Of a stretch of 64,000 nt of DNA, positions 7,400-46,459 are shown piece by piece. Position 1 is the stretch's first letter. Every line of letters starts with the position of its first letter. Source of the stretch: Bdellovibrionales bacterium (GTDB lineage: Bacteria; Bdellovibrionota; Bdellovibrionia; Bdellovibrionales; UBA1609); the NCBI GenBank assembly GCA_965116175.1, contig OZ220490.1, positions 1,283,548 to 1,347,547 on the forward strand, read 5' to 3'. The notes under the pieces were generated by a model. The model was not told the origin of the DNA. It did no database searches and saw only the letters and a program-made list of their open reading frames with translations. The position numbers were made by a program, and so were the translations under genes.

Positions 7400-7977
7400 T
7401 TTGTTTTAAATCATTGGGGGTTTGAATTAATAAAGATAACAGTTTCATTCCACTTAGTTGATCCCGAAAAAACATAATTTTTTTAATATTCACAATGTTT
7501 AAGAAACACCTCATCTTTATTAACGGATTGCCGCTAAAAAAAGCAATCTTAAAGATATATTTGCTGCATAAAAAATAAAGTGTCTAAACCGTCCTTTTGA
7601 AGGATATGTATAATTTTTTAACATTTGCAAGGATTTTCTTTCTTATCAATTCTATCTATAAAAAAAGTTTATGTTAAAACTATTAAAACAAATGCAAGTG
7701 GTTTTAAATCCTTTAAGTCCTTTAAACAATAGAAGACTATATTCCTATTTGTCTTTTGACAGCTATAGCCAATAAAATAATAAAAATACGGATTTTTACT
7801 TGATAAGCTAATTATTGACTAACTTTGAAAGTTTAATTTTGTAAAACTTTCATTAAATCCATAAAAAGTTGACATAAAAGACTTATTCTTTTTAAAATCC
7901 TCAACTAAGCTGGTTTTTTTATAAGTTTTAATCATTGAAATTTGGATTTTATTTTATTTAAACACCTGCAAAGAAGG

Positions 7978-8751
7978 ATGTTCACATTGAAAAAAATAAT
8001 AATCTTTGTTTGTTTCTTATTGCCCTTTATATCAGAAGCTATAAAACCAGAAACTATAGAGCTAAAAGCTATAGAACCAGAAGCTGTTCAAATAGGAATG
8101 CCTGAACCTTCAGATCCTTGTCACAACAGCATTATTTCCTTCAAAAAAACTTCTAATCTAAATTTTTCATTTCAAAGAAGAAATCTATCTGATAAAGACA
8201 TTCAGGATCTGATAGATTTAGCAACAACAAAACTCTTTAAAACAGAATTTCGCACCACAGGAGAACTTGATTTACAGTGGAAAAATAAAATATTGGAAAA
8301 CGCCTCTAAAATGAGTCCTAGTCAAACAGTTACAATTATACACAATATTACAGAACTCTACAAATATAGTAATTCTAGGGCTAACGTATCTCAACTGATT
8401 GAAAAGTTCTTACAGTCCCTGCTTCAAGAAACAATACCAAATCTTGAAACCTTTGATAAATATCAACTTATAGATATACTTTGGCCATTTAGATATTTAA
8501 GTATTAAAGTCCAACCTGAAATTATGACCACTTCCAAATCTGAAATTATACCCACTTCTGAATCTGAAATTGCAGCCACTTCCGGATCTAAACTTGACCC
8601 TGACATTGATTTCGTTAAAACATGGAATAAAGTTGCTAAAAGAAAAAAGTATACACCGGACGAAATCTCATACCTCAGACAGCTTTTTAAAGATCTCAAG
8701 ATTACTTCAGAATACAATTACAAAAATGGAGCTTTAAATGGAGGGGGTTAA
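7978..8751 (+). CDS. hypothetical secreted protein with internal short repeats
   Basis: ATG at 7978 follows agaagga. Signal-peptide-like MFTLKKIIIFVCFLLPFISEA. Internal repeats IKPETIE/LKAIEPEA and TTSKSEII/PTSESEIA/ATSGSKL. No family recognised. Confidence 0.5.
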   Translation: MFTLKKIIIFVCFLLPFISEAIKPETIELKAIEPEAVQIGMPEPSDPCHNSIISFKKTSNLNFSFQRRNLSDKDIQDLIDLATTKLFKTEFRTTGELDLQWKNKILENASKMSPSQTVTIIHNITELYKYSNSRANVSQLIEKFLQSLLQETIPNLETFDKYQLIDILWPFRYLSIKVQPEIMTTSKSEIIPTSESEIAATSGSKLDPDIDFVKTWNKVAKRKKYTPDEISYLRQLFKDLKITSEYNYKNGALNGGG

Positions 8752-8880
8752 GATATTCCTTAATTTGAAGCTGATTCTTTCTTAACCTCTTGCTTAAAAC
8801 TCATAAACTCTTTTATTTCTTAGATAGATAGAGATAAAAAAGGGAACTTTAAAGACAACCTAAAGATAGGTTTTCTCGCT

Positions 8881-10470
8881 TCATTTTTTCTCTTTGGATA
8901 AAAACAGATGATAAAATCTTTCTGAGCCAAAAGGCTTTATGACATAACCTTTAACTCTTGGTGAAAGGGCTACATATTTATAGGCATGAGCAATGGGAAT
9001 AAGAGGAATATCCTGATTAAAAACAACCTGCGCTTTTTTATAAAGCTGTTCCGCTTTTTTCTGACTGGCTGTGATCATAGCCTTCACAATAAATTGATCA
9101 TATTTTTTGTTACACCACCGGGATAAATTGGAGCCTGAGGCAATAGCGTCACAAGTTAACAGAATCTGCAGAAAATTACTGGGGTCAGCAATATCCGCCG
9201 ACCAGCCCAACTGAATCATTTCATGCTCCCCCTGAGAGCTTTTAGCCAGATAAGTCGGCCAATCATAAGTGACAAGCTGGACAGATATACCCACTTTTTT
9301 TAAATCCGCCTGCATCAGCTCCCCCATTTTTTTCCCATTAGGATTGTAGGGGCGGGAAACAGGAAGCGTCCAAAGCTTCACTTTGAAGCCTTTTTCAAAA
9401 CCGGCAGACTTTAAAAGCTGTTTGGCTTTTTCAGGATTGTACTCTGGAAGCCTGACTTTTGAGTTGTGCCCCCAAAGAGCCGGAGGGACAGGGGTATCCA
9501 AAGTTTCAGCAAGCCCTTTGTAAATGGCTGAAATATAAAGCTTTCGGTTAAGGGCATGGGCAATGGCCTTACGGACTTTTTTATTATTTAAAGGGGCTTT
9601 TGAAGTATTCATAGAGAGATAACCTAGATTGTGATCCATTCCCTCCATAACACGAATGTTTTTATGCTTTTTCATAGCAGGGACATCTGTTGGCTGAGGC
9701 TTAGCTGAAAAATGACATTCCCCTCTTTTAAGCTTTTGAAAACGAACACTGGGATCAGGTGTTATAGAAAAAACAATTCTCTTCAGTTTTGCAGGGCCAA
9801 GGTAATAATTTTCATTTCTCTTATAACGAATAAGATTCCCTTTAACATATTTTTCCAAAATAAAGGGGCCTGTTCCCACAGGCTCAAAATCTATCTTTCC
9901 CGCCTGCTTCTTCTCTAAAAGAAAATCAGCATACTCTTTGGACAAAATAACAGCAAACTCCATAGCCATAATTTTAGGAAATAACAGCATTGGTTTTTTT
10001 AAAACAAATTGAACTATGTAATCATTAACTTTTTTTAGGGCCACAATTTGATTGTGTAAATCAAGAGACTGAAAAAACTTATAGCCTCCGCCGTTTATAC
10101 TGTAAAAAGAATGCTTTTTGTTTTTTTGCCGATTGAAAGAGAACAAAACATCATCCGCATTAAAAGGACGTGAAGGTTTAAAGCCTCCTCTGGGGTAAAA
10201 CTGAACATTTTTTCTTAAATGAAATGTATAGGTTTTTTTATCTTTGGAGAGAGTCCATTTTTTTGCCAAACCAGGAATCAGCTTTTTCCCTTCAAGATCA
10301 AATTCCATAAGACGGCTGTAAAGCAAATTACTGGCATCAAAGGCGGAACCGCTGAGAGACATTTGAGGGTTAAAGTAATCCGGACTGGCCTCAGAACAGT
10401 AAATTAAAGTTTCACAAACAGAAAAACCAGGAATTAAAAAAAGAGCTACGCTTAAAAATATACTTTTCAT
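8881..10470 (-). CDS. ABC transporter substrate-binding protein, family 5 (peptide/nickel, DppA/OppA-like)
   Basis: 529 aa with a signal peptide. The overall pattern is typical of SBP_bac_5 (ASPDYFNPQ, WTLSKDKKTYTFHLRKNVQF, GPF.. region). Confidence 0.85.
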   Translation of the reverse strand: MKSIFLSVALFLIPGFSVCETLIYCSEASPDYFNPQMSLSGSAFDASNLLYSRLMEFDLEGKKLIPGLAKKWTLSKDKKTYTFHLRKNVQFYPRGGFKPSRPFNADDVLFSFNRQKNKKHSFYSINGGGYKFFQSLDLHNQIVALKKVNDYIVQFVLKKPMLLFPKIMAMEFAVILSKEYADFLLEKKQAGKIDFEPVGTGPFILEKYVKGNLIRYKRNENYYLGPAKLKRIVFSITPDPSVRFQKLKRGECHFSAKPQPTDVPAMKKHKNIRVMEGMDHNLGYLSMNTSKAPLNNKKVRKAIAHALNRKLYISAIYKGLAETLDTPVPPALWGHNSKVRLPEYNPEKAKQLLKSAGFEKGFKVKLWTLPVSRPYNPNGKKMGELMQADLKKVGISVQLVTYDWPTYLAKSSQGEHEMIQLGWSADIADPSNFLQILLTCDAIASGSNLSRWCNKKYDQFIVKAMITASQKKAEQLYKKAQVVFNQDIPLIPIAHAYKYVALSPRVKGYVIKPFGSERFYHLFLSKEKK

Positions 10471-13979: not shown

Positions 13980-14060
13980 ACAAGTATTCATACCACAATT
14001 TGTTGAGCTGTCAAATCGGCTGAAAATAACTTGATTATCTCCCTAAATTTAGCCTCCGTG

Positions 14061-14145
14061 ATTCTTGAACAGATAAAAGGCTTGTTTTTCATTGTAAATA
14101 CAATAAGTTAACCGAATCTTAAGTCAGCTTAAAGTGTCTTGAACC
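14061..14145 (-). repeat. about 85-bp dispersed repeat related to the leader of the IS1595-like fragment at 45.65 kb
   Basis: By eye, the reverse complement aligns at roughly four-fifths identity to 45646-45725. Shared blocks: ggttcaWgaYactttaag, ggttaac, ttgtatttaca, atgaaaaa, gttcaaga. Confidence 0.55.
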
Positions 14146-22973: not shown

Positions 22974-25433
22974 TTAAGAAGCCCCTATAGAACGACTTTC
23001 TTTTTTGATAAGAGGAATCCTTTTTGGCCAGGTTTCATGCAAGGTCTTAAAAATTTTATCTGCTGAATCAATCTCCAAAGCTTCCATCAAAACTTTATCC
23101 ACCTGTTCCACAGGAAGAATTTTAACATCCTTCAAAACTTTTTTAGGAATATCTTTTAAATCCTTTTCATTTTCTTTAGGAATAATCACTGTTTTAATTT
23201 GTGCACGGTGAGCAGCAAGAACTTTTTCTTTTAAGCCTCCAATAGGCAATACTCTTCCTCTTAAGGTAATTTCTCCTGTCATGGCTACGGTATTTTTTAC
23301 AGGAACACGCAAAATAGCAGACATTAAACTGGTAACAATAGCTATACCAGCAGAAGGTCCATCCTTAGGAATAGCCCCTTCCGGCACATGGATATGAAAA
23401 TCATGATCTTTAAAATATTTACTATCCAAATTAAAAAAAGAGGATAAAGATCGGACAAAGCTCAAAGAGGCTGAACAGGATTCCTTCATAACATCCCCCA
23501 GTTGACCTGTAAGATGATATTTCCCTGTTCCAGGAACAACAAGAGTCTCCACCGCAAGGGTGTCTCCCCCCGTCTCTGTCCATGCCAACCCTGTAGCCAA
23601 ACCAACCATGCTGGCACTTTCCAACTCAGTGAAACGAAATTTTCTTGGACCAAGCAATTTTTCCAATTCTTTTCTGGAAGTGAGTTTGATTTCTTTTTTC
23701 TTACTTGATTTTCCTTTTTTCTCGGTTTTATTTGAATCTTTTTCTCCCTTAATTACAATCTCTTTTGCAAACTTACGAAAGATACTGGCTAAAGTTCTCT
23801 CAAGCTGTCTGACACCAGCTTCTTTTGTGTAATAAGCAATAATCTCTTTTAAAATGTAATCAGGCATTTCCAATTTGTAACCAGAAAGACCATGTCTTTC
23901 CATCTGACGGGGGATAAGATGCCTTTTGGCAATATTGATTTTTTCCTCTTCTATATATCCCTCAATAGAAATGGCTTCCATTCTATCCAATAAAGGGCCT
24001 TTTAAAGAATGAACAGAATTGGCCGTGCAAATAAACAGGACAGGAGATAAATCATAATCCACTTCCAAATAATGATCCTGAAAGGTATGATTTTGTTCAG
24101 GGTCTAAAATTTCAAGCAAAGCTGAGGAAGGATCACCTCTAAAAGAACCCATACCCATTTTATCCACCTCATCTAAAAGGATAACAGGATTCCCTTTCTT
24201 GACTTTTTTTAAAGCCTGGATGATTTTACCAGGCATAGAGCCTACATAAGTTTTTCTATGCCCTCTTAACTCCGCTTCATCCTGAACACCACCAAGAGAA
24301 ATACGGGTAAATGAACGGTTAAGGCATCTGGCAATGGATTGAGCCAAAGAGGTTTTCCCGACTCCAGGAGGCCCAACAAAACAAATGACAGGGCTTTTCA
24401 CATTTTGACTTAAACGGCGAACAGCCAAAAATTCGGTGATTCTCTCTTTGACTTTTTTTAAACCCCAGTGATCAGCATCCAGTATTTCCTGAGCTTTACT
24501 AATGCTGTTTTTTTCCTGAGAAAAATCAGCCCAAGGCAAATCCAAAAGCCAATCCACATAATTTCTTACAACAGTGGCTTCAGCGCTCATAGGAGACATC
24601 ATTTTTAACTTTTGTATTTCTTTTTTAAATCTCTCATTAACCGTATTGTTCCATTTCTTTTTGACCCCTCTCTCTTCCAGATTTTTAACCTCATTTTGAA
24701 AGTCATCCTTATCTCCTAATTCTTTTTGAATAGCCTGCAGCTGTTCATTAAGATAATATTCCTTTTGAGATTTTTCCATTTGCTCTTTAACTCTTGTGCG
24801 AATCTTTTTCTCCACTTTAAGAATTTGTATCTCTCTGGTGATAAGTTTTAAAACCTCCTTTAATCTTTGAATCGGCTCTATAATTTCCAAAATTTTTTGT
24901 TTATCCTCAAAACGCAAATTAAGATAAGCAGCAATGGTATCCGCCAACTCCCCACAATTATCAATAGTGGAGATTTTAGCCATAGCCTCTGAGGGAATAT
25001 GTTTGTTAAGCTTCACATAGTTTTCCACTGAAGTATAAACTGTTCTAAGAAGAGCCTCTGCCTCCATAACATTAGGCGCCTTTTCAATCAAAGGTTCAAC
25101 TTCTACTGTAAGGTAATTTTTTAAATCAATATATTTTTTTATGCGGACACGCTGTTTACCTTCCAAAATGGTTTTTACAGTGCCATCAGGAATTCTCAGG
25201 TGTTGGATTATAGAAGCCAAAGTGCCAATTTCATAAATCTGATCAGGAGAAGGATCATTGATTTTTGCTTTTTTTTGTGAAGCTAAAACAATATCCGTCT
25301 TGTTGGAAATGGTTTGCTCCAAAGCATTTATGCTTTTTTCTCTTCCGACAAAAACAGGGATCATCATATAAGGGAAAATAACCATATCGCGAAGAGGCAA
25401 AAGCGGCAATGTTAAGTGAGAAGATTTATTCAT
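22974..25433 (-). CDS. lon: ATP-dependent Lon protease
   Basis: 819 aa. Walker [10 protein letters not shown] and catalytic serine context [10 protein letters not shown]. Confidence 0.95.
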
Positions 25434-25561: not shown

Positions 25562-26824
25562 CTATGCGCTGGCTTTTTGAGACTTTGAACTTGATTTTTT
25601 CTTGGTTTTATAAACAAATTTTGGACTTCCTGTTTTTTTAATAACCTCTTCTGTAATTAAACAGGACTTTATATCATCATTTGAAGGCACTTCATACTGA
25701 ATGTCAAGCATACTGTCCTCCAAAACTTTTCTCAGCCCTCTGGCCCCTGTTTTATTCATAAGGGCCATTTCAGCTATAGCTTCAATAGCCGATTGTTCAA
25801 ACTCCAACTCCACACCATTATAACTAAAAAGCTTTTGATACTGTTTAACAAGAGCATTTTTTGGCTCTTGTAAAATTCTGATAAGAGCTTCTTTATCAAG
25901 AGAATCCAAAATGGATACACCCGGAAGCCGGCCAATAAACTCAGGAATCAAACCGTACTGAACAAGATCAGATGGTTCTAATCGGGAAAGAATTTCTGAT
26001 CGGCTGATTTTATCCGGAGTTTCCACCTTAGCTGAAAAACCAAGAGAACGGCTGGAAATGCGGTTCTGGACTATCTTTTCCAAACCCACAAAAGCCCCTC
26101 CCACAATAAACAAAATGTCCGCTGTGTTGATCTGTATAAACTCTTGCTGAGGATGTTTTCTTCCCCCTTTTGGAGGCACATTGGCCACTGTTCCTTCCAG
26201 AATTTTTAAAAGAGCCTGTTGAACACCTTCACCACTAACATCACGAGTAATAGATACATTTTCCCCTTTGCGGGTGATTTTATCAATTTCATCAATATAA
26301 ATAACTCCCTTTTCCGCTTTTTTAACATCATAATCAGCGGCCTGAAGTAAACTTAAAACCACATTCTCTACATCCTCTCCAACATAACCTGCCTCTGTAA
26401 GAGTTGTTGCATCCGCCACAGCAAAAGGGACATTTAAAATACGGGCTATAGTCTGTGCCAACAGAGTTTTACCTGAACCTGTAGGGCCAATAAGCAACAA
26501 GTTGCTTTTGTCAACCTCCACACCGTCCTTTTTGGACTGATCCATCATATTGATTCTTTTGTAATGATTGTGAACAGCAACGGCTATAGATTTTTTGGCT
26601 CTGCCCTGGCCTATAATGTATTCATCCAAACGGGCTTTAATTTCTGCAGGCGGGGATACTTTAAGTTTTTTTCTTGAAGAAACAGCATCCTTCTTTTCTT
26701 CATCATGAAGAATTTCATTACATAATTCAATGCACTCATTACAAATATAGACCTGAGGCCCTGAAATAAGCTTTGAAACATCTTTTTGATTTTTTCCGCA
26801 AAAGTTGCAATTATTTACTGCCAT
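25562..26824 (-). CDS. clpX: ATP-dependent Clp protease ATP-binding subunit ClpX
   Basis: C4 zinc finger CNFCGK...CNEC, plus GPTGSGKT. Confidence 0.95.
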
Positions 26825-26907: not shown

Positions 26908-27549
26908 TTACCCATTTTTATCATCTGTCTTATTTTTTCTGTTTTCCACAATATGATCTATAAGACCTAGTTCTTTTGCTTCCTCAGCTCCCATATAGCG
27001 ATCCCTGTCCATCATCTTTGTAAGTTTTTCTACATTGTGACCTGTGTGCTTCGCATAAATGTTTGTAAGCTGTTTTTTTGTATAAGACATTTCCTTTGCA
27101 TGAATTTCAATATCACTCACCTGCCCTGAAATTCCCGAGCCTGCAATAAGAGGCTGATGAACCATCGTTCTAGCATTAGGGAGAATATATCTCTTGTTTT
27201 TAGCTCCTGCACAGAGAAGCATAGATCCCATACTTGCTGCCAAGCCTATACAATAAGTGGCTACATCACAACGAACAAATTGCATAATATCATAAATGGC
27301 AAGACCTGCATGAACACTGCCCCCAGGGGAGTTGATATAAAGATTTATATCCTGAGAGGCATCCTGCATTTCTAAAAAAAACATTTGGGCAATAACACTG
27401 TTGGCAATATTGTCATCAATACCTGTGCCTAACATAATAATTCTGTCTTTTAAAAGACGGGAATAAATGTCGTAGCTTCTCTCCCCTTTTGGGGTTTGCT
27501 CAATAACTATAGGGACTAAAGACAAAACAAGCTCCTGCTCTTCAAACAT
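26908..27549 (-). CDS. clpP: ATP-dependent Clp protease proteolytic subunit
   Basis: Contains [30 protein letters not shown] (Ser) and MVHQP (His). The ATG at 27549 (MFEEQ) gives a canonical N-terminus. The track start at 27609 (GTG) would add 20 aa. Confidence 0.9.
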
Positions 27550-27554
27550 GAGTT

Positions 27555-27696
27555 TTAAAACATTGATTCTATCTGTTTTTTCAGCTTTTTTTAGGAACAA
27601 CGCTGACACACAATTCCAAAAAATCCCAGACTTTTTTAAGACAAAATCAATATAACAGCTTGTCGGCTTTTTTGGATTGAACTTAAATTTTTTTAT
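27555..27696. repeat. direct repeat copy 1 (clpP 5' and upstream region)
   Basis: 27571-27658 is identical over 88 bp to 30092-30179. Flanking similarity with a few mismatches extends the repeat to about 142 bp. Confidence 0.9.
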
Positions 27697-28017
27697 ATAA
27701 CTGAAAACAAGCTTTTATTTCTGTCTGTTTTTTACCTGTTAACTGAAGTCTTTTACAGAATAAAAAGAAACTATTATCTGGTCTTAAGAAGTTTTATAAG
27801 CCTTTTGCTAGATTTCTTTTTTGAAATATCAAAAGGAGTCTCACTTTTATTGTTTTTAACGGCAATATTTGCTCTCTTTTAATGAAGATGTTTGCGCGCC
27901 TCATTATGCTTGAAATTCTCAAGTGATAGATAGCGCAGTCAAAGAGTTAAATTTGAATGTAATCCCGTATGAAACATTTGATTGATCATTGAAATAGAAC
28001 TTGCATTACATTTCAGT

Positions 28018-29736
28018 TTATTTTTTCTCTTTATTTTTTAAATAGTTTTTAAGCAGTTCATTAATTGAAATTTCAGGTAATTTTGACTTTTGTCTCACTC
28101 TCCAATCTCTTCTTCTTTCCCCTTTTTCCATAAAACCGTTTTTTTCCCATTGTTGAAACAGCTTTGATAATTGCACTATTTCTGATTGACTGTTAGATAA
28201 ACCAAAAAGTTGTCTTGCCTCTTTGTTTGTTATATAACCGTCCCGATTTTCTCGATATGCATGATTTTGTAATATTTCTTTAAATTTATTTTCTTCTGCT
28301 TTTGAAAATACTTTTGACTCCTGACCTTCTAGTTGAACTTTTACCCATCGCTTTAAAAGAATTTTTGCTACTGGTTTTTTCTTGTTTTTTTGCGGGTATT
28401 CAGTTGTTAATAAGAAAGGGGAATCATTATTTGAAAGAATCTCACTAATAAGTTTTTTGTGATACTCATCTATGCAGCTAAAAATTTCTTCCAGAGTTTT
28501 ATCTCTCCACAATACCAAAGCCGCTGAAATTTTGTATTTATCTGTATTGCTTTCATATAGTCTTTTAAACTTTTTAAGGAGCTTTAAAAAATTTTTATTT
28601 GGTTCTTCGTTATATATAGTTACTGACCATATACCATAATTATCTGAGACTTTTTGATATTCAAAGAGAGGTTCTCTTCTTCCACTTTCAATCATATATT
28701 TAAAAATTTTATTTTTTCCTGTTCCAAATTCATCAGAGAACTTAGCTTTCCTTAAAACTTTCATTAAGAAAGGATTATAAGAAAAATGAACTTGAGAGAA
28801 TTTTTTATTGATAAAAGCTGTAGCTTTGGCTGAACAGTAATTTGAAATCTTAATTCTGTTTCTATACAATTCTACTGTTGCTTCTCTTTCTCTTTTTTCA
28901 AAAGCAGAATGGGCAACAGCATTAACAAGCACTTCTCTTAAAACAGAATCAGGATATGGTTTTTCTTCTGTAATAGACAAAGAACCGGGTCTTAAACTGA
29001 TTCCTTTAGTTCTTGTCCATGACTGAATATGTTGGATAAAGTCTTCTTTTAGTAAAGAGTATAGACCTTTTTTCTCATCTTGATCTGTAAGTTCAGATTT
29101 CTGATTATAATGCGCAACTCTAAAAGAAAAATCTCCAAATAAAATTCCTGAAACATTTTTATCTTTTATATTCAGTTTAGACAAAACATTGTCTGCTGAT
29201 AATTTCACCCAATCTTCACTGCCATTTTTTAAGAATTTTGCAAAATCTAAAACTAAAGAAGAAGTAACTTTACCTTTGTAATTAAGACTTGAAAAATCAA
29301 AGCCAGGGCGGTTTAATTCCAATTCTTGTTGTTCTCCTAGAGTCATCTCTTCTGTTCTTGATCCTACTCTTTTATAAAATTTTCCATTCCAAGAAACTAC
29401 TGCTTTGGGGTTTATGATTTCAATAAGTATAAATTTTTTGTTATTTACATTTTCAACAGAAATAGATTGCACTGTGGAATTAGGTTCAAGATATTGACTG
29501 ATATGATTTTCTATATAAGCTTCTTGTTTTTTTACCCAATCTGAGGATTTATCCAATAAAAGACCTTTATCATCAGTACCGATAATCAACCATCCACCAT
29601 CTTCTTCATTGCCAATAGCAGAGATGCTTTTCCCATGATTTTGATGCCATTTGGACTTGAACTCCACATTTGTGTTTTCAGTTAATTGCTGAGAAGATAA
29701 TTTTTCTAACAAGACTGCTTTCGTGTTGGAATTCAT
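28018..29736 (-). CDS. AlbA_2/Schlafen-like DNA-binding domain protein with HATPase_c_4-like region and C-terminal wHTH-like tail
   Basis: 572 aa. The N-terminus ENTNVEFKSKW...SISAIGNEEDGGWLIIGTDDKG matches the AlbA_2 pattern (E.K...A.aN..GG.l.iGv.d.G). The middle region VLREVLVNAVAHSAFEK...VELYRNRIKISN matches the pattern of RecG-like 'ATP-dependent DNA helicase' transcriptional regulators. Confidence 0.7.
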   Translation of the reverse strand: MNSNTKAVLLEKLSSQQLTENTNVEFKSKWHQNHGKSISAIGNEEDGGWLIIGTDDKGLLLDKSSDWVKKQEAYIENHISQYLEPNSTVQSISVENVNNKKFILIEIINPKAVVSWNGKFYKRVGSRTEEMTLGEQQELELNRPGFDFSSLNYKGKVTSSLVLDFAKFLKNGSEDWVKLSADNVLSKLNIKDKNVSGILFGDFSFRVAHYNQKSELTDQDEKKGLYSLLKEDFIQHIQSWTRTKGISLRPGSLSITEEKPYPDSVLREVLVNAVAHSAFEKREREATVELYRNRIKISNYCSAKATAFINKKFSQVHFSYNPFLMKVLRKAKFSDEFGTGKNKIFKYMIESGRREPLFEYQKVSDNYGIWSVTIYNEEPNKNFLKLLKKFKRLYESNTDKYKISAALVLWRDKTLEEIFSCIDEYHKKLISEILSNNDSPFLLTTEYPQKNKKKPVAKILLKRWVKVQLEGQESKVFSKAEENKFKEILQNHAYRENRDGYITNKEARQLFGLSNSQSEIVQLSKLFQQWEKNGFMEKGERRRDWRVRQKSKLPEISINELLKNYLKNKEKK

Positions 29737-29882
29737 TTTTTAAACTCTTAACAGTATCTATAAAACTTTTTTAAATACAAACAATCCTTATTTACAATCA
29801 GGTAGCACACAGACGACATAACCTTCAAAGCTCCTATTATATTGCTGTTTTATGCCTTTTTGTCCAAAGAATTGATAAAAAT

Positions 29883-30083
29883 AGACGACATGAGGCTTAA
29901 AATCATTGATTTTACAGGATTTTTTTAGACGGCTGGAACCATAATCAACTGTATGAAGTCAGACGACATGCAGACGACATAAGGATTAAAATCATTGATT
30001 TTACAGAACTTTTTTAGACGACTGGAGCCATAATCAGCTGTATGAAGTCAGACGACACGCAGACGACATGAGGCTTAAAATCA
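29883..30083. repeat. tandem repeat, 89-bp unit, about 2.25 copies
   Basis: Unit starts fall at 29883, 29972 and 30061 (agacgacatRagg...). Each unit boundary carries a doubled 11-mer, cagacgacaYg cagacgacatR. An extra solo agacgacata lies at 29811. Confidence 0.9.
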
Positions 30084-30217
30084 TTGATTTTATCTGTTTT
30101 TTCAGCTTTTTTTAGGAACAACGCTGACACACAATTCCAAAAAATCCCAGACTTTTTTAAGACAAAATCAATATAACAGTTTGTCGGTTTTTTTGGCTTG
30201 AACCTTAATTTTTTTGA
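30075..30217. repeat. direct repeat copy 2 (duplicate of the clpP 5' and upstream region)
   Basis: See copy 1. It ends at aaccttaattttttt (30201-30215), where the sequence switches to amidohydrolase-derived DNA. Confidence 0.9.
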
Positions 30218-30416
30218 AGAAATGGGGACAGAGGCAAAATTACAGGCTCTTAAATATGGAAATGAGTTTCCAAAAACCCAACAGATATTTAAAATGCAAA
30301 TCTTGAAGGAGCGAGGACTATGAGTTTGGAAAAAGAGATTGGCAGTATTGAAGTGGGAAAACGGGCTGATATTATTGTTTTGGATTTAAAACAAGCCTCT
30401 TTTCATCCTTTTTACA
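30216..30416 (+). pseudogene. fragment of MtaD-like amidohydrolase gene (paralogous to 44251-44473)
   Basis: Translates to EEMGTEAKLQALKYGNEF..QQIFKM..., then after a frameshift MSLEKEIGSIEVGKRADIIVLDLKQASFHPFY. The intact gene reads EEMGTGAKLQALKYGDECLTAQQIFKMASLEGARAMGLEKEIGSIEVGKRADIIALDLNHASFHPFY. Confidence 0.85.
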
Positions 30417-30523
30417 GAGTTTTTTTTGGATGGATTTTTGTCTGTCATCAAAACTTCACATCCGGATTTAGCCAATACAACTCCTAAAGATAAGCCTATA
30501 CACCCTGAACCAATAATTGTCAT
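30417..30523 (-). pseudogene. 5' fragment of the UDP-glucose dehydrogenase-family gene (paralogous to 42651-42760)
   Basis: The minus strand reads MTIIGSGCIGLSLGVVLAKSGCEVLMTDKNPSKK. The intact gene reads MKVSIIGSGRIGLSLGVVLAKSGCEVLMTDKDPSKK. Confidence 0.85.
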
Positions 30524-30536
30524 TTTACACCCTCCT

Positions 30537-41056: not shown

Positions 41057-41304
41057 TGTATGCTAAATCTTGTTTGAAATTTTCAGTTTTTGTGCTTTTA
41101 TTATCTAAATAAATATCCATTTATCAAGTGAAATTTGGTTTGGTTCCTAATGACTAGACACTTCCAATGGAAAAAAAATTCTGATTCAAAGCTTTTTGCT
41201 TTAAATTCCTTTTCTTTTATAGTATTTTGCCTTACTCAGCTTCTATATTGAAAAAGAGATATAATGAAAAAAATTACAACTCAATAAAATTTATAGGTGA
41301 AGTG

Positions 41305-42489
41305 ATGAAAACTCATAACAGTATGAAAATTTTAGTTCTTTTTGGTTTAGTATTTTCGCAATTAGGTTTTGCAAATAAAGAAAAACGGCCTTTACCAAAT
41401 GGACAATTTCAATCTCTTTTTACAAATCGAGAAGATTATCCGGCTGTTGTGCAAATCTACAATAAATTTGGTTTTGGGACTGCTTTTTTTATTAGTCCTG
41501 AACTTGTGGTTACAAATTTCCATGTTATTCTTTTGGATTTTAAAGATTCAATAGATAACACTTTTATAGAAACTGTGAATGAAAAAGAAATTCCAATCAA
41601 ATCAATTGTTGCTCTTGACGGTATAAATGATTTAGCTATTTTACAAGTGAAAGATTACCAATCTGAAGACTATTATGAGCTTCGTTTTAATAATAAACCA
41701 ACAAGTTTAAATCAAAAAGTTCACACAATGGGTTTCCCTGGGGGTGAGTTTAGGTATGGACAGGGGAATATTCATAAAAAAACTTCTAACAACATTTATG
41801 CTAATATTCAAGGAATGAGGCCAGGATTCAGTGGTTCGCCGGTATTTTCCAATACAGGAGAGTTAGTTGGTGTTCTTAGCGTCTCAACAGGATATAGTGT
41901 AGGTTTAGTGTCTTTTGAAAAATTAAAGGAACTTTTATCTAAAGGTTCTTTGAATTGTGATTCCAGTATTTGTATAAGTGAAGAGATAGGGAGAATTAAA
42001 GACTTAGCAGAACAAGGAGATAGAAAGGCTCAATTTATGTTAGCGAGAATGTATTTTGAAGGTCTAGGAGTGGAGCAAAATTATGAAGAGGCTTTTAAAT
42101 GGTTTGAGATGGCAGCTCTTCATATAGAGGCTCAATTTAATTTAGCGGTAATGTATTTGGAAGGTATAGGAGTAAAGAAAAATTATGAAGAAGCTTTTAA
42201 ATGGTTTGAGATGGCAGCTCTTCAAGGAGATAGAAAGGCTCAATTTGAATTAGGGTACATGTATTTTGAAGGTTTAGGAGTGGAGCAAAATTATGAAGAG
42301 GCTTTTAAATGGTTTGAGATGGCAGCTCTTCAAGGAGATAGAAAGGCTCAATTTGAATTAGGGTACATGTATTTTGAAGGTTTAGGAGTGGAGCAAAATT
42401 ATGAAGAGGCTTTTAAATGGTTTGAGATGGCAGCTCTTCAAGGAGATATGGAGGCTCAATCTTATTTAGATAAGTATTTTAAAAGGTAG
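41305..42489 (+). CDS. secreted trypsin-like serine protease domain fused to 4 Sel1 repeats (paralog of 30537..32282)
   Basis: ATG at 41305 follows aggtgaagtg. Same signal peptide and triad contexts as the paralog (VVTNFHVI, NDLAILQV, GFSGSPVF). Four Sel1 units and the identical tail EAQSYLDKYFKR. Confidence 0.85.
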   Translation: MKTHNSMKILVLFGLVFSQLGFANKEKRPLPNGQFQSLFTNREDYPAVVQIYNKFGFGTAFFISPELVVTNFHVILLDFKDSIDNTFIETVNEKEIPIKSIVALDGINDLAILQVKDYQSEDYYELRFNNKPTSLNQKVHTMGFPGGEFRYGQGNIHKKTSNNIYANIQGMRPGFSGSPVFSNTGELVGVLSVSTGYSVGLVSFEKLKELLSKGSLNCDSSICISEEIGRIKDLAEQGDRKAQFMLARMYFEGLGVEQNYEEAFKWFEMAALHIEAQFNLAVMYLEGIGVKKNYEEAFKWFEMAALQGDRKAQFELGYMYFEGLGVEQNYEEAFKWFEMAALQGDRKAQFELGYMYFEGLGVEQNYEEAFKWFEMAALQGDMEAQSYLDKYFKR

Positions 42490-42620
42490 AGGAGTGGAGC
42501 AAAATGATGAAGAGGCTTTAAAATGGCTTGAGAAGGCAGCTCTTCAATAAGATATGGAGGCTCAATTTTAAATTAGCGAACATGTATTTTGAAGGTGAGG
42601 AGTGGAGCAAAATGACAATT
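42490..42620 (+). pseudogene. decayed Sel1 repeat units downstream of the stop codon
   Basis: The sequence after the TAG still reads GVEQNDEEALKWLEKAALQ*DMEAQF*..MYFEG.GVEQND, with stops and frame breaks. Confidence 0.8.
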
Positions 42621-42647
42621 ACTTATTTATGATTATCTTTTAAAGTT

Positions 42648-44048
42648 ATGAAAGTTTCAATTATTGGTTCAGGGCGTATAGGCTTATCTTTAGGGGTTGT
42701 ATTGGCTAAATCCGGATGTGAAGTTCTGATGACAGACAAAGATCCATCCAAAAAAAAATCTGTAACAGGTGAATCCCTGTCCTTTTATGAGCCAAATTTA
42801 CAAAATGACATAAAAGAAAGTCAAAACAATCTGGAATGGACAAGCTACACAGAAAAAATCATCTCTTCTGATTTAATCTTTTTATGTTTAAGCGCTCCAT
42901 TAAACAAGTCAGGGGATCTGAATTTAACAGAAATTCTGGAATGGGCAAAACTCATTGCTGAAAACACTAAAAAAGAAAAACTCTTGATCATTAAAAGCAC
43001 TCTTCCCATTGGAACAAACCAAAAAATTCATTCTATTGCTAAAGAGAGAAAAGCCCCTTTATCTGTTATCACCTGTCCTGAATTTTTAAGACAGGGGCAG
43101 GCTTTAAAAGATATGTATTCCCCTGAGAGAATTGTTATTGGATCAAGAGATTTACATATAGGCAAAAAATTGGAAGCGCTTTATAAAAAATTCTCAAATC
43201 CAAAACACATTATTCATACAGATCCGGAAACAGCAGAATTGTCAAAACTAGCCTGCAATTCTTTTTTAGCTGTAAAAATCAGTTTTATCAATGAGTTTGC
43301 AGGACTTTGTGAACAAGTGAAGGCTAATCCTAAAACATTACAACTTATTTTAGGAACAGATCCTCGTATAGGGAAAGATTTTTTAAACTCTGGTCTCGGT
43401 TATGGAGGCTACTGTCTTCCCAAGGATATTCAGTTAAGTGTCCGTGAAGGGCAAAAAAGAAGTCAAAATATGAACATATTAAAGAGCGCTCAACAAATAA
43501 ATAACTCCCTTACAAAAGAATTTTTCCAAAAGATCAAACAGCATTATAAAAATTTAAAGTTTATTTCTCTGGCTTTTTGGGGCCTCAGTTTTAAACAAAA
43601 TACAGACGACTTAAAAAACTCCCCGGCTTTAAATTTACTTTGCCAGCTTCTAAAAATAGGAGCTGAAATTCATGTTTATGATCCTCTCTTTATTAAAGAA
43701 AAAACTTTTATGTTTTTTAAAAGTGATTTAAAAAAACAGGGGGTTTATTTTAATAAGTTTTTTAAAGTCCTGCCTGTTCAAAAAGAGGATCAAATAAGTT
43801 TTTTAAAACAAAAAATAATGGCTGGAAAAGTTTTATTTCACAAAACAGCTCTGGACAGTCTTGATGGCAGACAGGGGTTGATCATTGGTTCCGATTGTGA
43901 GGAATTTAAGCAAATTTCTCTATCACAAATTAAACAGAAACTCAGTCAACCTTTTCTTGTTGACGGCAGAAACCTGTTTTCAGCAAAGGATTTACAAAAA
44001 GAAAATTTCTCTTTTTATCAAAGAGGATACTCTTTTATAAAAAAATAA
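42648..44048 (+). CDS. UDP-glucose/GDP-mannose 6-dehydrogenase family protein
   Basis: N-terminal Rossmann IIGSGRIGLSLG and catalytic Cys context GYGGYCLPKD. Confidence 0.88.
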   Translation: MKVSIIGSGRIGLSLGVVLAKSGCEVLMTDKDPSKKKSVTGESLSFYEPNLQNDIKESQNNLEWTSYTEKIISSDLIFLCLSAPLNKSGDLNLTEILEWAKLIAENTKKEKLLIIKSTLPIGTNQKIHSIAKERKAPLSVITCPEFLRQGQALKDMYSPERIVIGSRDLHIGKKLEALYKKFSNPKHIIHTDPETAELSKLACNSFLAVKISFINEFAGLCEQVKANPKTLQLILGTDPRIGKDFLNSGLGYGGYCLPKDIQLSVREGQKRSQNMNILKSAQQINNSLTKEFFQKIKQHYKNLKFISLAFWGLSFKQNTDDLKNSPALNLLCQLLKIGAEIHVYDPLFIKEKTFMFFKSDLKKQGVYFNKFFKVLPVQKEDQISFLKQKIMAGKVLFHKTALDSLDGRQGLIIGSDCEEFKQISLSQIKQKLSQPFLVDGRNLFSAKDLQKENFSFYQRGYSFIKK

Positions 44049-44068
44049 CTTTTTAAATATCTGAATTT

Positions 44069-45391
44069 TTAATCAAATGATCTTTTAGTTGATTTTAAAA
44101 AATCTTTAATTTTGCCGGCAAAAAACTCACTCTCTTTGAAAACCTTTTGTTTATCCAAAGTTTTTAGCTTATAGTTCTCCATTAAAACCCGGCCTTCACA
44201 CATAACAAAACTCACTTCATTTCCCAAAGCTGTATAAACAATGTTTGAAATGGGATTGTAAAAAGGATGAAAAGAGGCATGGTTTAAATCCAAAGCAATA
44301 ATATCAGCCCGCTTTCCCACTTCAATACTGCCAATCTCTTTTTCCAAACCCATAGCCCTCGCTCCCTCAAGGCTTGCCATTTTAAATATCTGTTGGGCTG
44401 TTAGACACTCATCTCCATATTTAAGAGCCTGTAATTTTGCCCCTGTCCCCATCTCTTCAAAAAAATTTAAGTTATTGTTAGAGGCTGAGCCGTCTGTCCC
44501 CAAGCCTACAACAACACCTTTTTCCAAAGCCTGTCCAACAGGCGCTATGCCATTGGAAAGCTTCATATTGCTTTCAGGGTTATAGGAAAGGGATGTTTGT
44601 GTTTTGGACATGATTTCTAAATCTTTTTCATTCACATGAACACAATGAACAAATAAAGAATTTTTACCTGTCACTCCCAAACTGTGAAGATGCTGGACAG
44701 GGGTTTTGTTATATCTTTTTTTAATTTCTTCTTGCTCCCATACACTTTCTGAAACATGGATGACAAGAGGCAGATTTTCTGATTTGGAAAACTCTCCTAT
44801 TTCCAAAAGAGTTTTTGGCTCCACAGTGTAAGGCGCATGGGGAGCAATACCTATATGAACTCTAGGATGATCTTTAAAAAGGTTTTTTATATCCAATGTT
44901 TTTTTCCTCCATTCCATCCAATCCTTTTCCACACTGGGAACACCTAATCCCACAATTCCCCTTAAACCAGATTCATCTAAAACCTCAGCAATAGCTTTGT
45001 TATAAAAATACATATCGTAACAGGAAGTTATGCCGGATCGGATAAGCTCCACTAAAGAGAGTTTTGTACCCGCCCGGACAAAATCCTCTTTCACCAAGCC
45101 CTCTTCCAAAGGGAAAATATAATCTTCCAGCCAAACTTTTAAAGAAAGATTATCTGCCAATCCTCTAAATAAAGACATTGGGAGATGTGTATGGGTGTTA
45201 ACAAACCCCGGACAAACTAAATGATTTTTTAAATGGTAAGTCTGTTTTGCTTTTAAGCTGGATGAAGGTCCCCCAAGATAAGAAATCCGCCCCTGCTGCA
45301 AACCAACAGCTCTATTAGATTCAAGGACAAATTCATCCTCTTTACATATTAAAATTTTGTCACATAATAAAAGGCTATCGTATTCCTGCAT
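44069..45391 (-). CDS. amidohydrolase, 5-methylthioadenosine/S-adenosylhomocysteine deaminase (MtaD)-like
   Basis: ATG at 45391 (MQEYDSLLL); the track's 60-aa N-terminal extension runs into repeat DNA. Contains GFVNTHTHLPMSLFRGLADN, HVSES and GLGTDGSASNN. Confidence 0.85.
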   Translation of the reverse strand: MQEYDSLLLCDKILICKEDEFVLESNRAVGLQQGRISYLGGPSSSLKAKQTYHLKNHLVCPGFVNTHTHLPMSLFRGLADNLSLKVWLEDYIFPLEEGLVKEDFVRAGTKLSLVELIRSGITSCYDMYFYNKAIAEVLDESGLRGIVGLGVPSVEKDWMEWRKKTLDIKNLFKDHPRVHIGIAPHAPYTVEPKTLLEIGEFSKSENLPLVIHVSESVWEQEEIKKRYNKTPVQHLHSLGVTGKNSLFVHCVHVNEKDLEIMSKTQTSLSYNPESNMKLSNGIAPVGQALEKGVVVGLGTDGSASNNNLNFFEEMGTGAKLQALKYGDECLTAQQIFKMASLEGARAMGLEKEIGSIEVGKRADIIALDLNHASFHPFYNPISNIVYTALGNEVSFVMCEGRVLMENYKLKTLDKQKVFKESEFFAGKIKDFLKSTKRSFD

Positions 45392-45425
45392 AATTTTTTT
45401 ATACTGATCCTGTTTGAAGTTTCCA

Positions 45426-45608
45426 CCTGAGTTCGCCCTTTTGACCTTTAATCTAGTATTATAACATTTTAAAAACTTTATAAATACAAAGATTTTTATT
45501 TTTTTTCCTAGTATGTCTATTTTTTCCCAATATGTCCTCTGACATAAATAAAACATAGTAAAATCAATCATTTATAGGAATCAGGATCTTTGAAAGGGCG
45601 AACTCAGG
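45426..45608. repeat. 16-bp perfect inverted repeat pair enclosing 151 bp (MITE-like or long hairpin)
   Basis: cctgagttcgcccttt (45426-45441) pairs with aaagggcgaactcagg (45593-45608). Confidence 0.6.
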
Positions 45609-45645: not shown

Positions 45646-45984
45646 GGTTCATGATACTTTAAGTGGCCTTAAAAGTTGGTTAACCTATATTGTATTTACA
45701 TGAAAAATAAGTATTGGTTCAAGACTAGTTAAGCCTACTGTGATAGGAGTTAATGAGTTGAAATGACTGGAAAAAACAAGTATTTTACCCTTTCCCGCAT
45801 TTCTGAGAAGAAATTTAGGGAAATAATCAAGCTCTTTTCAGCCGATCTGACAGCCTCTCAAATAACTTTTTTGACACAAACAAACAGAAATACAATCCAT
45901 AAAATTCTAAAAAATATCAGGATGAGAATCTGTGAGATTTGTGAAAAAGAAACTCCTCTTGAAAAGGGTTTTTCAACAGTCTGA
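45646..45984 (+). mobile_element. truncated IS1595/IS1016-like element: duplicated leader plus the first 73 codons of the transposase
   Basis: MTGKNKYFTLSRISEKKFREIIKLFSADLTASQITFLTQTNRNTIHKILKNIRMRI resembles the IS1016-type N-terminus (SRLSxYKQNKLIELFVAGVTARTAAELVxVNKNTAAFYFHRLR). The ORF stops where the TIR element begins. Confidence 0.6.
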
Positions 45985-45985
45985 C

Positions 45986-46286
45986 GACATGATCTGACAC
46001 CTGTTGAAAAATCCTTTAAAACTTAACCCCATTAAGTTTTATTAAGTATAGACTTGATCCTTTCTTTTTTTAAGCCAAAAAGTAAAATGTATCTCTTGAA
46101 AAGCCCATCACCTTACAGGCTCTTGACACATTACCGAGTTGTTCTGCTAAATTCAGCAAACCAACTTTATTCTTTATGATTTTTCTGTTAGTTTCTATCA
46201 TGGGTTACCTCCTTTATGTTTTGATAGATTTACATCCTTATCAAAACGGGTAACCCTGATCTTTTCAAACAGTGTCAGATCATGTC
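45986..46286 (-). mobile_element. 301-bp miniature element with 15-bp perfect terminal inverted repeats, carrying a truncated HTH transposase N-terminus
   Basis: TIR gacatgatctgacac at 45986-46000, with its reverse complement at 46272-46286. The minus-strand ORF 46070..46201 has a perfect SD (aaggaggtaacccATG) and reads MIETNRKIIKNKVGLLNLAEQLGNVSRACKVMGFSRDTFYF, then a stop. Confidence 0.65.
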
Positions 46287-46459
46287 TTAACTAGTACACC
46301 TAATACCATGGTACCATGGACATTCTTTATTTTGTGACCTGTGGCAGTATCTGCATGACACAAAAAAGAAAAAAACAAACTTGAAAAAATAAGCCACAAA
46401 AATGCTTCCATATTATAATCTCGCTCTTTTACTGGTTTAATGGACTGATTAGTATTTCT

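Follow-up and report, generated by a model that had tools for sequence, protein, structure and literature searches.

A duplicated promoter/array chimera brackets a Schlafen/GHKL ATPase gene upstream of clpP in a Bdellovibrionales bacterium

We analyzed a 64,000-nucleotide stretch of DNA (the window) from contig OZ220490.1 of a Bdellovibrionales bacterium, in which a single Schlafen-type gene and an array of short repeats (iterons) lie between two direct repeats upstream of the clpP-clpX-lon operon. The operon, the gene, the array and both repeats are read on the minus strand. The operon consists of clpP (26908-27525), which has a probable TTG start and a GGAG Shine-Dalgarno sequence, followed by clpX (25562-26824) and lon (22974-25433). 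It is closest to operons of metagenome-assembled Bdellovibrionales, and the best ClpP match, in OZ241840.1, is 89% identical. Repeat copy 1 (27546-27703) lies immediately upstream of the clpP Shine-Dalgarno sequence, and copy 2 (30066-30224) lies upstream of the array. Between the copies we found a 314-bp non-coding spacer (27704-28017, without strand) that separates copy 1 from the Schlafen stop codon, the Schlafen/GHKL ATPase ("Schlatpase") gene itself (28018-29736, 572 amino acids), a proximal promoter-like region (29810-29867) and a tandem array of 2.4 copies of an 89-bp unit (29883-30092). An earlier prediction, made from the letters of the window, had described about 320 bp of non-coding DNA and a tandem block here, which agrees with the spacer and the array. 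It had also noted that no integrase or transposase open reading frame (ORF) lies between the copies; we confirmed this and found none beside them either, and only the Schlafen ORF exceeds 58 codons between the copies. No intrinsic terminator was predicted between the Schlafen gene and clpP, so read-through is possible. The window is rich in AT, and GC content is slightly lower between the repeats (0.29-0.30 versus 0.33-0.40).

By blastn, the two copies (27546-27694 and 30066-30215) are 94% identical over 150 nt, in line with the roughly 142 bp of similarity first reported. In a repeat search the similarity trails out to 27703 and 30224 (27554-27703 versus 30075-30224, 92%). The perfectly identical run at the center, given originally as 88 bp (27571-27658 and 30092-30179), is real, but its length is 89 nt (27570-27658 = 30091-30179). 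A 53-nt probe from the repeat core has exactly 2 copies in the 64-kb window, compared with 0 in 100 shuffles. The copies differ at nine positions, one of them an indel, and these differences argue against a trivial assembly duplication. The repeat core had no match in metagenome contigs of the Joint Genome Institute (JGI), and an Rfam scan of 27-31 kb returned nothing credible. Folded as RNA, the repeat center can form a 15-bp long-range stem (z = -3.1 and -2.3). We set an RNA reading aside because the stem is seen in two near-identical copies only, which offer no covariation.

The 150-bp repeat is a chimera of three parts: a clpP promoter-like motif, a unique leader of about 65 nt and roughly the first 30-40 nt of an array unit. 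Read along the minus strand, the outer ~45 nt hold the promoter-like motif (27659-27686 in copy 1, where the sequence is TTTAAGTTCAATCCAAAAAAGCCGACAAGCTGTTATATTG, and 30180-30208 in copy 2). The inner ~30-40 nt are array-unit sequence, (C)AGATAAAATCAATGATTTTAAGCCTCATG, the array-unit stretch being TAAAATCAATGATTTTAAGCCTCATG. In copy 2 the array piece (30066-30104) passes in register into the array, whose end was placed at 30092 by Tandem Repeats Finder, and homology to the orthologue loci described below reaches 30092-30104. In copy 1 the array piece is truncated (about 27546-27575): it is cut at CATGT, after which the native clpP leader TTGAAGAGCAGGAGC begins (TGAAGAGCAGGAGC; compare TGAAACTCAGGAGC in the relative L002). 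Thus, the proposal that the repeat was copied from the clpP 5' region holds for the upstream motif inside it; its inner end belongs to the Schlafen gene's own array. We considered whether the middle 65 nt is a decayed array unit or an orthologue array flank and rejected this, as neither comparison was significant (171 of 1000 shuffles scored equally well).

In seven close relatives (L002-L008), clpP starts with a TTG just before S/A-L-V/I-P-I-V, and a GGAG-type Shine-Dalgarno sequence lies 6-7 nt upstream. The window has the same arrangement, with TTG at 27523-27525 and GGAG at 27532-27535, and from this sequence comparison TTG 27525 is most likely the clpP start. The GTG at 27609, which is the clpP start in a mechanical ORF list, is an ORF-finder extension. 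An in-frame ATG at 27549 sits in the last bases of the repeat, within a CTCATG that is common to array units, and is array-derived. The repeat stops at 27546 and hence holds none of the conserved clpP coding sequence, and the suggestion that it would include the first clpP codons if GTG 27609 were the start is not upheld.

In relatives, the DNA upstream of clpP carries a conserved motif, TTAAG-N10-16-RCCGAHAAR, located 33-61 nt ahead of the TTG start; the two repeat copies are the only places in the window where it is found. The pattern AAAARCCGAHAAR, derived from the clpP upstream DNA of L002-L008, matches the window only at 27659-27671 and 30180-30192, with 0.13 matches expected; with its TTAAG-N10-16 partner the expectation falls to 0.04. 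Two examples from relatives are TTTTAAGTT-N-AAAAGCCGATAAG (L003) and TTAAGTTCAAGTC...AAAAAACCGACAAG (L006). Two forms of conserved upstream sequence were apparent in the order. The close relatives L002-L008 carry TTAAG...AAAARCCGAHAAG about 30-60 nt upstream of clpP, which we take to resemble the sigma-28-class consensus TAAA-N15-GCCGATAA. The more distant Pseudobdellovibrionaceae L010-L040 carry CCCGAGAAGTTCTTGTCAGAACT...CCATATTG (a CTTG...CCATAT pattern) about 40-80 nt upstream, which to us looks sigma-32-like. The two patterns suggest a switch in clpP control within Bdellovibrionales.

The other parent of the repeat is the array. Each 89-bp unit contains two 11-bp iterons, RTGTCGTCTGY, and a palindrome, AAAATCAATGATTTT. 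Closer to the gene, an alignment of eight loci delimited the proximal promoter-like region, with TTGGACA at 29861-29867, TATAAT at 29836-29841 and a single iteron, TATGTCGTCTG, just downstream at 29810-29820. All eight aligned loci share a promoter-like block, TTTTTAATCAATTCTTTGGACAAAAAGGCATAAAACAGCAATATAAT, followed by one iteron directly upstream of the start codon. The conservation of this block indicates that the Schlafen gene appears to have its own promoter, and the iteron in operator position suggests, from sequence, autoregulation. In one orthologue locus (L208), 13 bp are tandemly duplicated (AATTCTTTGGACA, 2.2 copies) at about 1460-1487, or positions -153 to -126 relative to the gene start, exactly over the conserved -35-like element; this may be a natural promoter variant.

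Database searches recovered about 50 full- or near-full-length homologues of the Schlafen protein at 54-86% identity, many of them on contigs longer than 1 Mb. We examined ten orthologue loci from related assemblies of about 1-2.5 Mb: seven close loci (L001, L082, L083, L084, L207, L208 and L209) and three more distant ones (L210, L211 and L212, at 62%, 45% and 40% identity). Homologous arrays precede all seven close orthologues and L210, so that array and gene occur together in 8/8 loci with homologues at least 62% identical. In these eight, the units are 89-109 bp long and each has 2-5 direct 11-bp RTGTCGTCTGY repeats; the palindrome is present in every unit of the closest loci. Unit number ranges from at least 2, where a contig end truncates the array, to 10, with some arrays cut by contig ends. 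L212 has 79-bp units with an iteron variant, ATGTCGTCG. Counting the window, an array lies upstream of the gene in 10 of 11 loci spanning 40-100% protein identity, including two of the three more distant loci.

The iteron is also specific to this gene. Across 1.25 Mb of related DNA in which the gene is missing, the iteron dimer does not occur, and an iteron 9-mer occurs twice against about 9.5 expected; in the window, the 9-mer is found only upstream of the Schlafen gene. The 20-nt iteron dimer TGTCGTCTGYRTGTCGTCTG was also matched once per contig in more than 120 JGI metagenome contigs (L085-L204; GC about 0.44). We rejected these contigs as relevant loci since none encodes a Schlafen protein; they probably share a dispersed repeat that is unrelated and may stem from a host genome. 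From their accession series, we presume that many belong to a single group of JGI metagenome projects. Two viral contigs that matched the dimer had no Schlafen/AlbA2 gene.

We then compared what surrounds the gene at the orthologue loci. The neighbors differ at every one of the ten, and include a type I restriction-modification system (L207), Vsr, Fic and Dcm genes (L082), SNF2 and SMC genes (L083), DarT and AAA_15 genes (L210), fragments of insertion sequence (IS) IS3, and ankyrin and Sel1 genes; in the window the neighbors are clpP and a Sel1/trypsin protease gene. Among 80 related clpP loci from GTDB species representatives, none has the Schlafen gene within 10 kb of clpP. The seven close loci are homologous to the window only in the gene and its upstream region. 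The homology extends upstream as far as 30064-30104, and its downstream limit is the stop codon or, for complete genes, a point within about 45 nt of it. The 314-bp spacer and the remainder of the repeat have no homology in these seven loci. Taken together, we conclude that the repeats enclose a lineage-conserved module of 2.5 kb, consisting of the gene, its own promoter-like region with an iteron and the upstream iteron array. The orthologue comparison gave no sign of a foreign-islet origin of the module, and a search of plasmid DNA for it returned no match.

Divergence of the gene could be set against that of the operon in a single genome, through one pair of loci (L002 and L082) on the same 2,207,895-bp assembly. 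Between that genome and the window, identity is 83% for the Schlafen protein, 89% for ClpP, 84% for ClpX and 81% for Lon. On the basis of this one same-genome pair of sequences, inheritance of the Schlafen gene looks vertical. The 80 clpP loci were also used in a search for an empty site; the closest ClpP is 89% identical, and the intergenic DNA is too diverged beyond the promoter motif, which is all that the repeat and the clpP upstream DNA of relatives have in common. The gene is split or truncated in some relatives (L207 at 7610-9338, P0025, P0026, P0029 and P0032). In L207 it is present as pieces of 55 and 445 amino acids with the upstream array retained, and the gene thus decays in some lineages though it is widely conserved.

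The protein has the domains that were originally predicted. It matches PF04326 (Schlafen AlbA_2; residues 20-132) with 51 bits against a cut-off of 25.3, and PF13749 (GHKL/histidine-kinase-like ATPase; residues 285-361) with 32.3 bits against a cut-off of 26. A catalytic-type motif, E20-NTNV-E25-F-K27, fits the Schlafen definition Ex4(E/D)xK (PMC13056530), and its three residues are invariant in an alignment of 37 homologues. An AlphaFold2 model had a mean pLDDT (predicted local distance difference test) score of 86. With Foldseek, the full-length model matched 3LMM (the structural-genomics protein DIP2311; E 1e-18), its N-terminal domain matched SLFN13, and its middle part gave weak matches to GHKL kinase domains (VanS CA, PDK). 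The C-terminal third was modeled as two winged-helix-like modules (about 381-470 and 479-550), with weak Foldseek matches to kleisin and cullin. PADLOC gave only a spurious Cas11a match, NCBIfam gave none, and a sequence search of the PDB returned nothing useful.

Before considering how the arrangement arose, we describe the DNA on the far side of copy 2. A fragment of an amidohydrolase gene (30201-30416, plus strand) abuts copy 2. It is an inverted copy, 91% identical, of 44257-44473, which lies inside the intact amidohydrolase gene (44069-45571). The fragment meets copy 2 at the 15-nt sequence AACTTAAATTTTTTT, which also forms the outer edge of copy 1 and overlaps the conserved TTAAGTT of the clpP promoter. 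We see two readings of this junction: microhomology at the promoter, or copy 1 having been made from copy 2 after the junction existed.

Two features of the repeat bear on the order of events. First, the junction between promoter and array is present twice and must therefore predate the duplication. Second, a fragment of the array is stranded in front of clpP, which marks copy 1 as the secondary copy. The best explanation, which we hold with moderate confidence, is that the module landed in the clpP leader and that a 150-bp copy of promoter, leader and array edge then restored the clpP promoter. In the first step, the module would have come to lie inside the clpP leader, so that the clpP promoter read into the array and the Schlafen gene; this junction would be copy 2. 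In the second step, the 150-bp copy would have been placed about 10 nt upstream of the clpP Shine-Dalgarno sequence as copy 1, and clpP-clpX-lon would have regained a promoter. The physical route could have been a tandem duplication followed by a deletion, or a template switch.

The substitutions that separate the copies can be polarized in part. At the array-part differences, copy 2 has the ancestral state in 4/4 cases; copy 1 has lost a base of the palindrome and has AA in place of GC before the ATG. At two elements of the promoter part it is copy 1 that has the ancestral state: the -35-like TTAAGTT, which reads TTAAGGTT in copy 2, and the AAG that follows CCGAC, which is AAA in copy 2; one spacer position there has the opposite polarity. 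It is suggestive, from nine differences only, that each copy keeps the half that works in its own context, the promoter bases in copy 1 and the array bases in copy 2. The original prediction had the Schlafen gene transcribed from a captured clpP promoter in copy 2. Such capture is unneeded, as the seven close orthologues share their own proximal promoter-like region and iteron operator, and in copy 2 it is the promoter elements that carry most of the derived substitutions. The copy 2 promoter could still read into the array, but it would be dispensable and is seemingly decaying. The two copies could also still recombine with each other, deleting the module.

Several observations weigh against this two-step history. 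The event order was drawn from nine substitutions and two junctions, and the relatives compared offer neither an empty nor an intermediate state. The middle 65 nt of the repeat matched neither parent sequence. A simple scan for sigma-70 promoters gave none on the minus strand within the repeat, so calling the clpP promoter there depends on conservation. A perfect 89-nt center is improbable under uniform decay (0.94^88, about 0.004), and with edges about 12% diverged it requires gene conversion or selective constraint. Finally, the amidohydrolase fragment joins copy 2 at a point that matches, to within about 15 nt, the outer edge of copy 1, and a simple two-step history gives no reason to expect this. 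That the boundaries coincide is the main point left unexplained; it may indicate one complex rearrangement, and it keeps a template-switch model alive.

We weighed two other histories, each of which we consider unlikely. In one, a 2.5-kb circle made up of the 150-bp segment, the array, the Schlafen gene and the spacer recombined in Campbell fashion with a resident 150-bp segment upstream of clpP, and could loop out again. One gene between 150-bp repeats, in an A-B-A layout, is exactly the product of a single crossover; a perfect core with diverged edges fits a crossover in the best-matching stretch, and the neighborhood of the module differs in every genome examined. However, the resident site would have needed an array-like piece upstream of clpP beforehand, and every relative lacks one in its clpP region. 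The plasmid search found no carrier, the viral contigs that matched lack an AlbA2 homologue, and no circle, plasmid or phage with the module was thus recovered; in addition, the divergence of the Schlafen gene matches that of core genes. The locus does resemble direct-repeat-bounded duplications, amplifiable units and Campbell insertions in its A-B-A layout, in a duplicated promoter and in 89 exact nucleotides, enough for RecA-dependent deletion or amplification. It differs from a simple tandem duplication in that copy 1 is followed by clpP and copy 2 by the array. The 6% divergence between the copies indicates that the arrangement is old and stable.

In the other history, which appears about as doubtful, copy 1 is the original. 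In a single microhomology-mediated template switch during replication, inverted copying of the Sel1/amidohydrolase region would have changed template at AACTTAAATTTTTTT into the clpP promoter, continued for 150 nt and then switched, at homology to the array unit, into the array. Copy 2 would have arisen together with the left arm of the inverted duplication described below. We regard this joint origin as improbable to the same degree. It would account for the coincidence between the repeat boundary and the amidohydrolase junction, and the divergence of the repeat (94% identity) is similar to that of the inverted duplication (88-95%). Moreover, the copy 1 edge (27680-27694) agrees at all 15 nt with 44459-44473 in the parent amidohydrolase gene, and copy 2 differs from this sequence at two positions. 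Yet this match may be partly coincidental, since an A-run plus TTTAAGTT is of low complexity and also occurs in the clpP -35-like element of L003 and L006. Several switches would be required within one event, and an array-like sequence native to the clpP leader would be needed, which the relatives do not have.

The original prediction had read the repeat as an att-like duplication left by an integration event or as a duplication-mediated capture. Taken as an att scar, the locus would be a foreign gene inserted by site-specific recombination, with the repeats as attL and attR and a captured clpP promoter. The locus shares with att-flanked islets its short direct repeats around a small segment beside a housekeeping operon, one gene bracketed by them and the slightly lower GC inside; orthologues also frequently have restriction-modification, DarT, Fic, AAA_15 and Vsr genes around them. 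Against this stand the missing integrase or transposase, the lack of any tRNA in 15000-48000 by ARAGORN, and a repeat that is a promoter/cargo chimera and probably no target sequence, whose 150 bp at 94% identity are atypical of att cores. The gene is conserved in the clade with core-like divergence and its own conserved promoter, and in the related genomes examined the cargo lies at other sites. We consider the att scar largely refuted and very improbable. A falsely duplicated segment in the assembly is less probable still, given nine differences including an indel, different and biologically coherent flanks at each copy, and a position inside a long contig. Nothing specific favors it; the source appears to be a metagenome-derived chromosome, to judge by the record of the identical protein P0001 on one 1.89-Mb contig. 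Having weighed these alternatives, we return to the two-step history as the best explanation, under which the 150-bp repeat is nothing unusual: an old duplication of local origin in a genome rich in rearrangements. A single "defense-like" gene flanked by direct repeats is not enough to call a mobile islet, and the repeat pair offers a minor natural case of a duplicated regulatory region whose copies decay in complementary ways.

The Schlafen gene is a new member of a known, largely uncharacterized family. Fusions of the Schlafen domain to a histidine kinase-like domain (HisKinase, 34%) and to HisKinase plus helix-turn-helix (HTH; 19%) are the commonest bacterial Schlafen architectures (PMC13056530). 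The pairing of Schlafen and GHKL domains has been named "Schlatpase", with an HTH in more than 90% of the C-terminal tails (bioRxiv 10.64898/2026.05.29.728809). The protein in the window has the PF04326 and PF13749 domains, the Ex4ExK motif and the 3LMM fold in common with pSlfn-HisKinase-HTH (PMC13056530) and Schlatpase (bioRxiv 10.64898/2026.05.29.728809) proteins; in the model its tail is winged-helix-like. What sets it apart from the known Schlatpase-HTH proteins is that its gene behaves as lineage-conserved and is nearly always preceded by an iteron array. In a limited literature search we did not find an iteron array linked to a Schlafen gene described.

Arrays of this kind are familiar from other settings. 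Known iteron or operator arrays bound by the product of the neighboring gene include plasmid Rep iterons and the 11-bp repeats of ParR-parC-type systems. As in those arrays, the 11-bp repeats (one helical turn) lie beside and overlap the promoter of a gene for a putative DNA-binding protein, and their copy number varies from lineage to lineage. The array described here differs from them in that it is chromosomal, has no replication or partition genes nearby, carries its iterons within 79-109-bp units and precedes a gene for a nuclease-ATPase fusion.

We propose the following model for the protein. Its C-terminal winged-helix part, as predicted from the structural model, would bind the 11-bp iterons. 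The iteron downstream of the promoter would give autorepression, and the protein would be loaded onto, or titrated by, the array as a platform. At the N-terminus, the Schlafen domain would be a latent, Mn-dependent tRNase-type effector. Two other Schlafen architectures protect against phage through trigger-activated, Mn-dependent tRNA cleavage (PMC13056530). The GHKL ATPase would switch on the Schlafen domain by oligomerization, in analogy to what has been shown for other Schlafen-GHKL proteins. Tentatively, we propose that the array is a chromosomal platform that loads the latent tRNase, or holds it inactive, through recognition by the C-terminal winged helices, with release by a signal that competes for or disrupts binding; this possibility falls well short of an even chance. 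The platform idea can be likened to the inactive filaments reported for Schlafen-Argonaute.

Three observations speak against this model. A Pfam search of the C-terminal third for HTH domains gave no match even at E<=10. HisKinase-fused Schlafens that have been tested gave no phage protection (PMC13056530). Finally, L211 is without such an array and has a different repeat. The HTH class of Schlafens has no member with a demonstrated function (PMC13056530). The linkage of iterons to the Schlafen gene, seen in Bdellovibrionales-type loci at 40-86% protein identity, is the more interesting by-product of the analysis, and it offers a concrete candidate DNA ligand for the HTH part. If the model is true, the largest, function-less bacterial class, Schlafen-GHKL-HTH, would gain a defined DNA ligand, and in this lineage Schlafen expression would be tied to the ClpXP/Lon stress regulon through the duplicated clpP promoter.

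The window contains further rearrangements around the repeat-bounded segment. The amidohydrolase fragment is the outer end of an inverted segmental duplication, 30201-32405 versus 41179-44473, with 82-95% identity. Within it, 30412-32405 corresponds in inverted orientation to 41179-42765, where a second Sel1/trypsin gene lies, and the left copy is without 1.49 kb corresponding to a UDP-glucose dehydrogenase gene (42648-44048). The paralogous genes for Sel1-repeat/trypsin-like proteases lie at 30537-32285 (minus strand) and 41227-42489 (plus strand). The amidohydrolase C-terminus survives as a remnant ORF of 55 amino acids (30320-30487). The Sel1 repeats of a 582-amino acid protease-Sel1 protein are encoded at 30532-31612 by nine to ten tandem units of 108 bp with 87-92% identity, and a strong GC skew (-0.4 to -0.5) is confined to these coordinates.

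IS debris occupies 45700-46310, and the nearest IS remnants lie 16 kb from the repeat-bounded segment. The debris includes a 43-amino acid fragment of HTH_29, a transposase-type domain (46070-46201), and a 73-amino acid ORF (45763-45984) that has no Pfam match. By eye, we also found inverted repeats of the GTGTCAGATCATGTC type around 45985 and 46275. An 82-nt match between the downstream flank of L207 and 46224-46304 of the window was considered as a synteny anchor for an 18-kb inversion; we dropped it because it adjoins the IS-type HTH remnant between two short inverted repeats. The source genome, of about 1.9 Mb, is repeat-rich, and with its Sel1 and ankyrin genes it may be host-associated. 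Short dispersed repeat copies of 74-83 nt, about 78% identical, were also found at 14007-14089 and 37413-37486.

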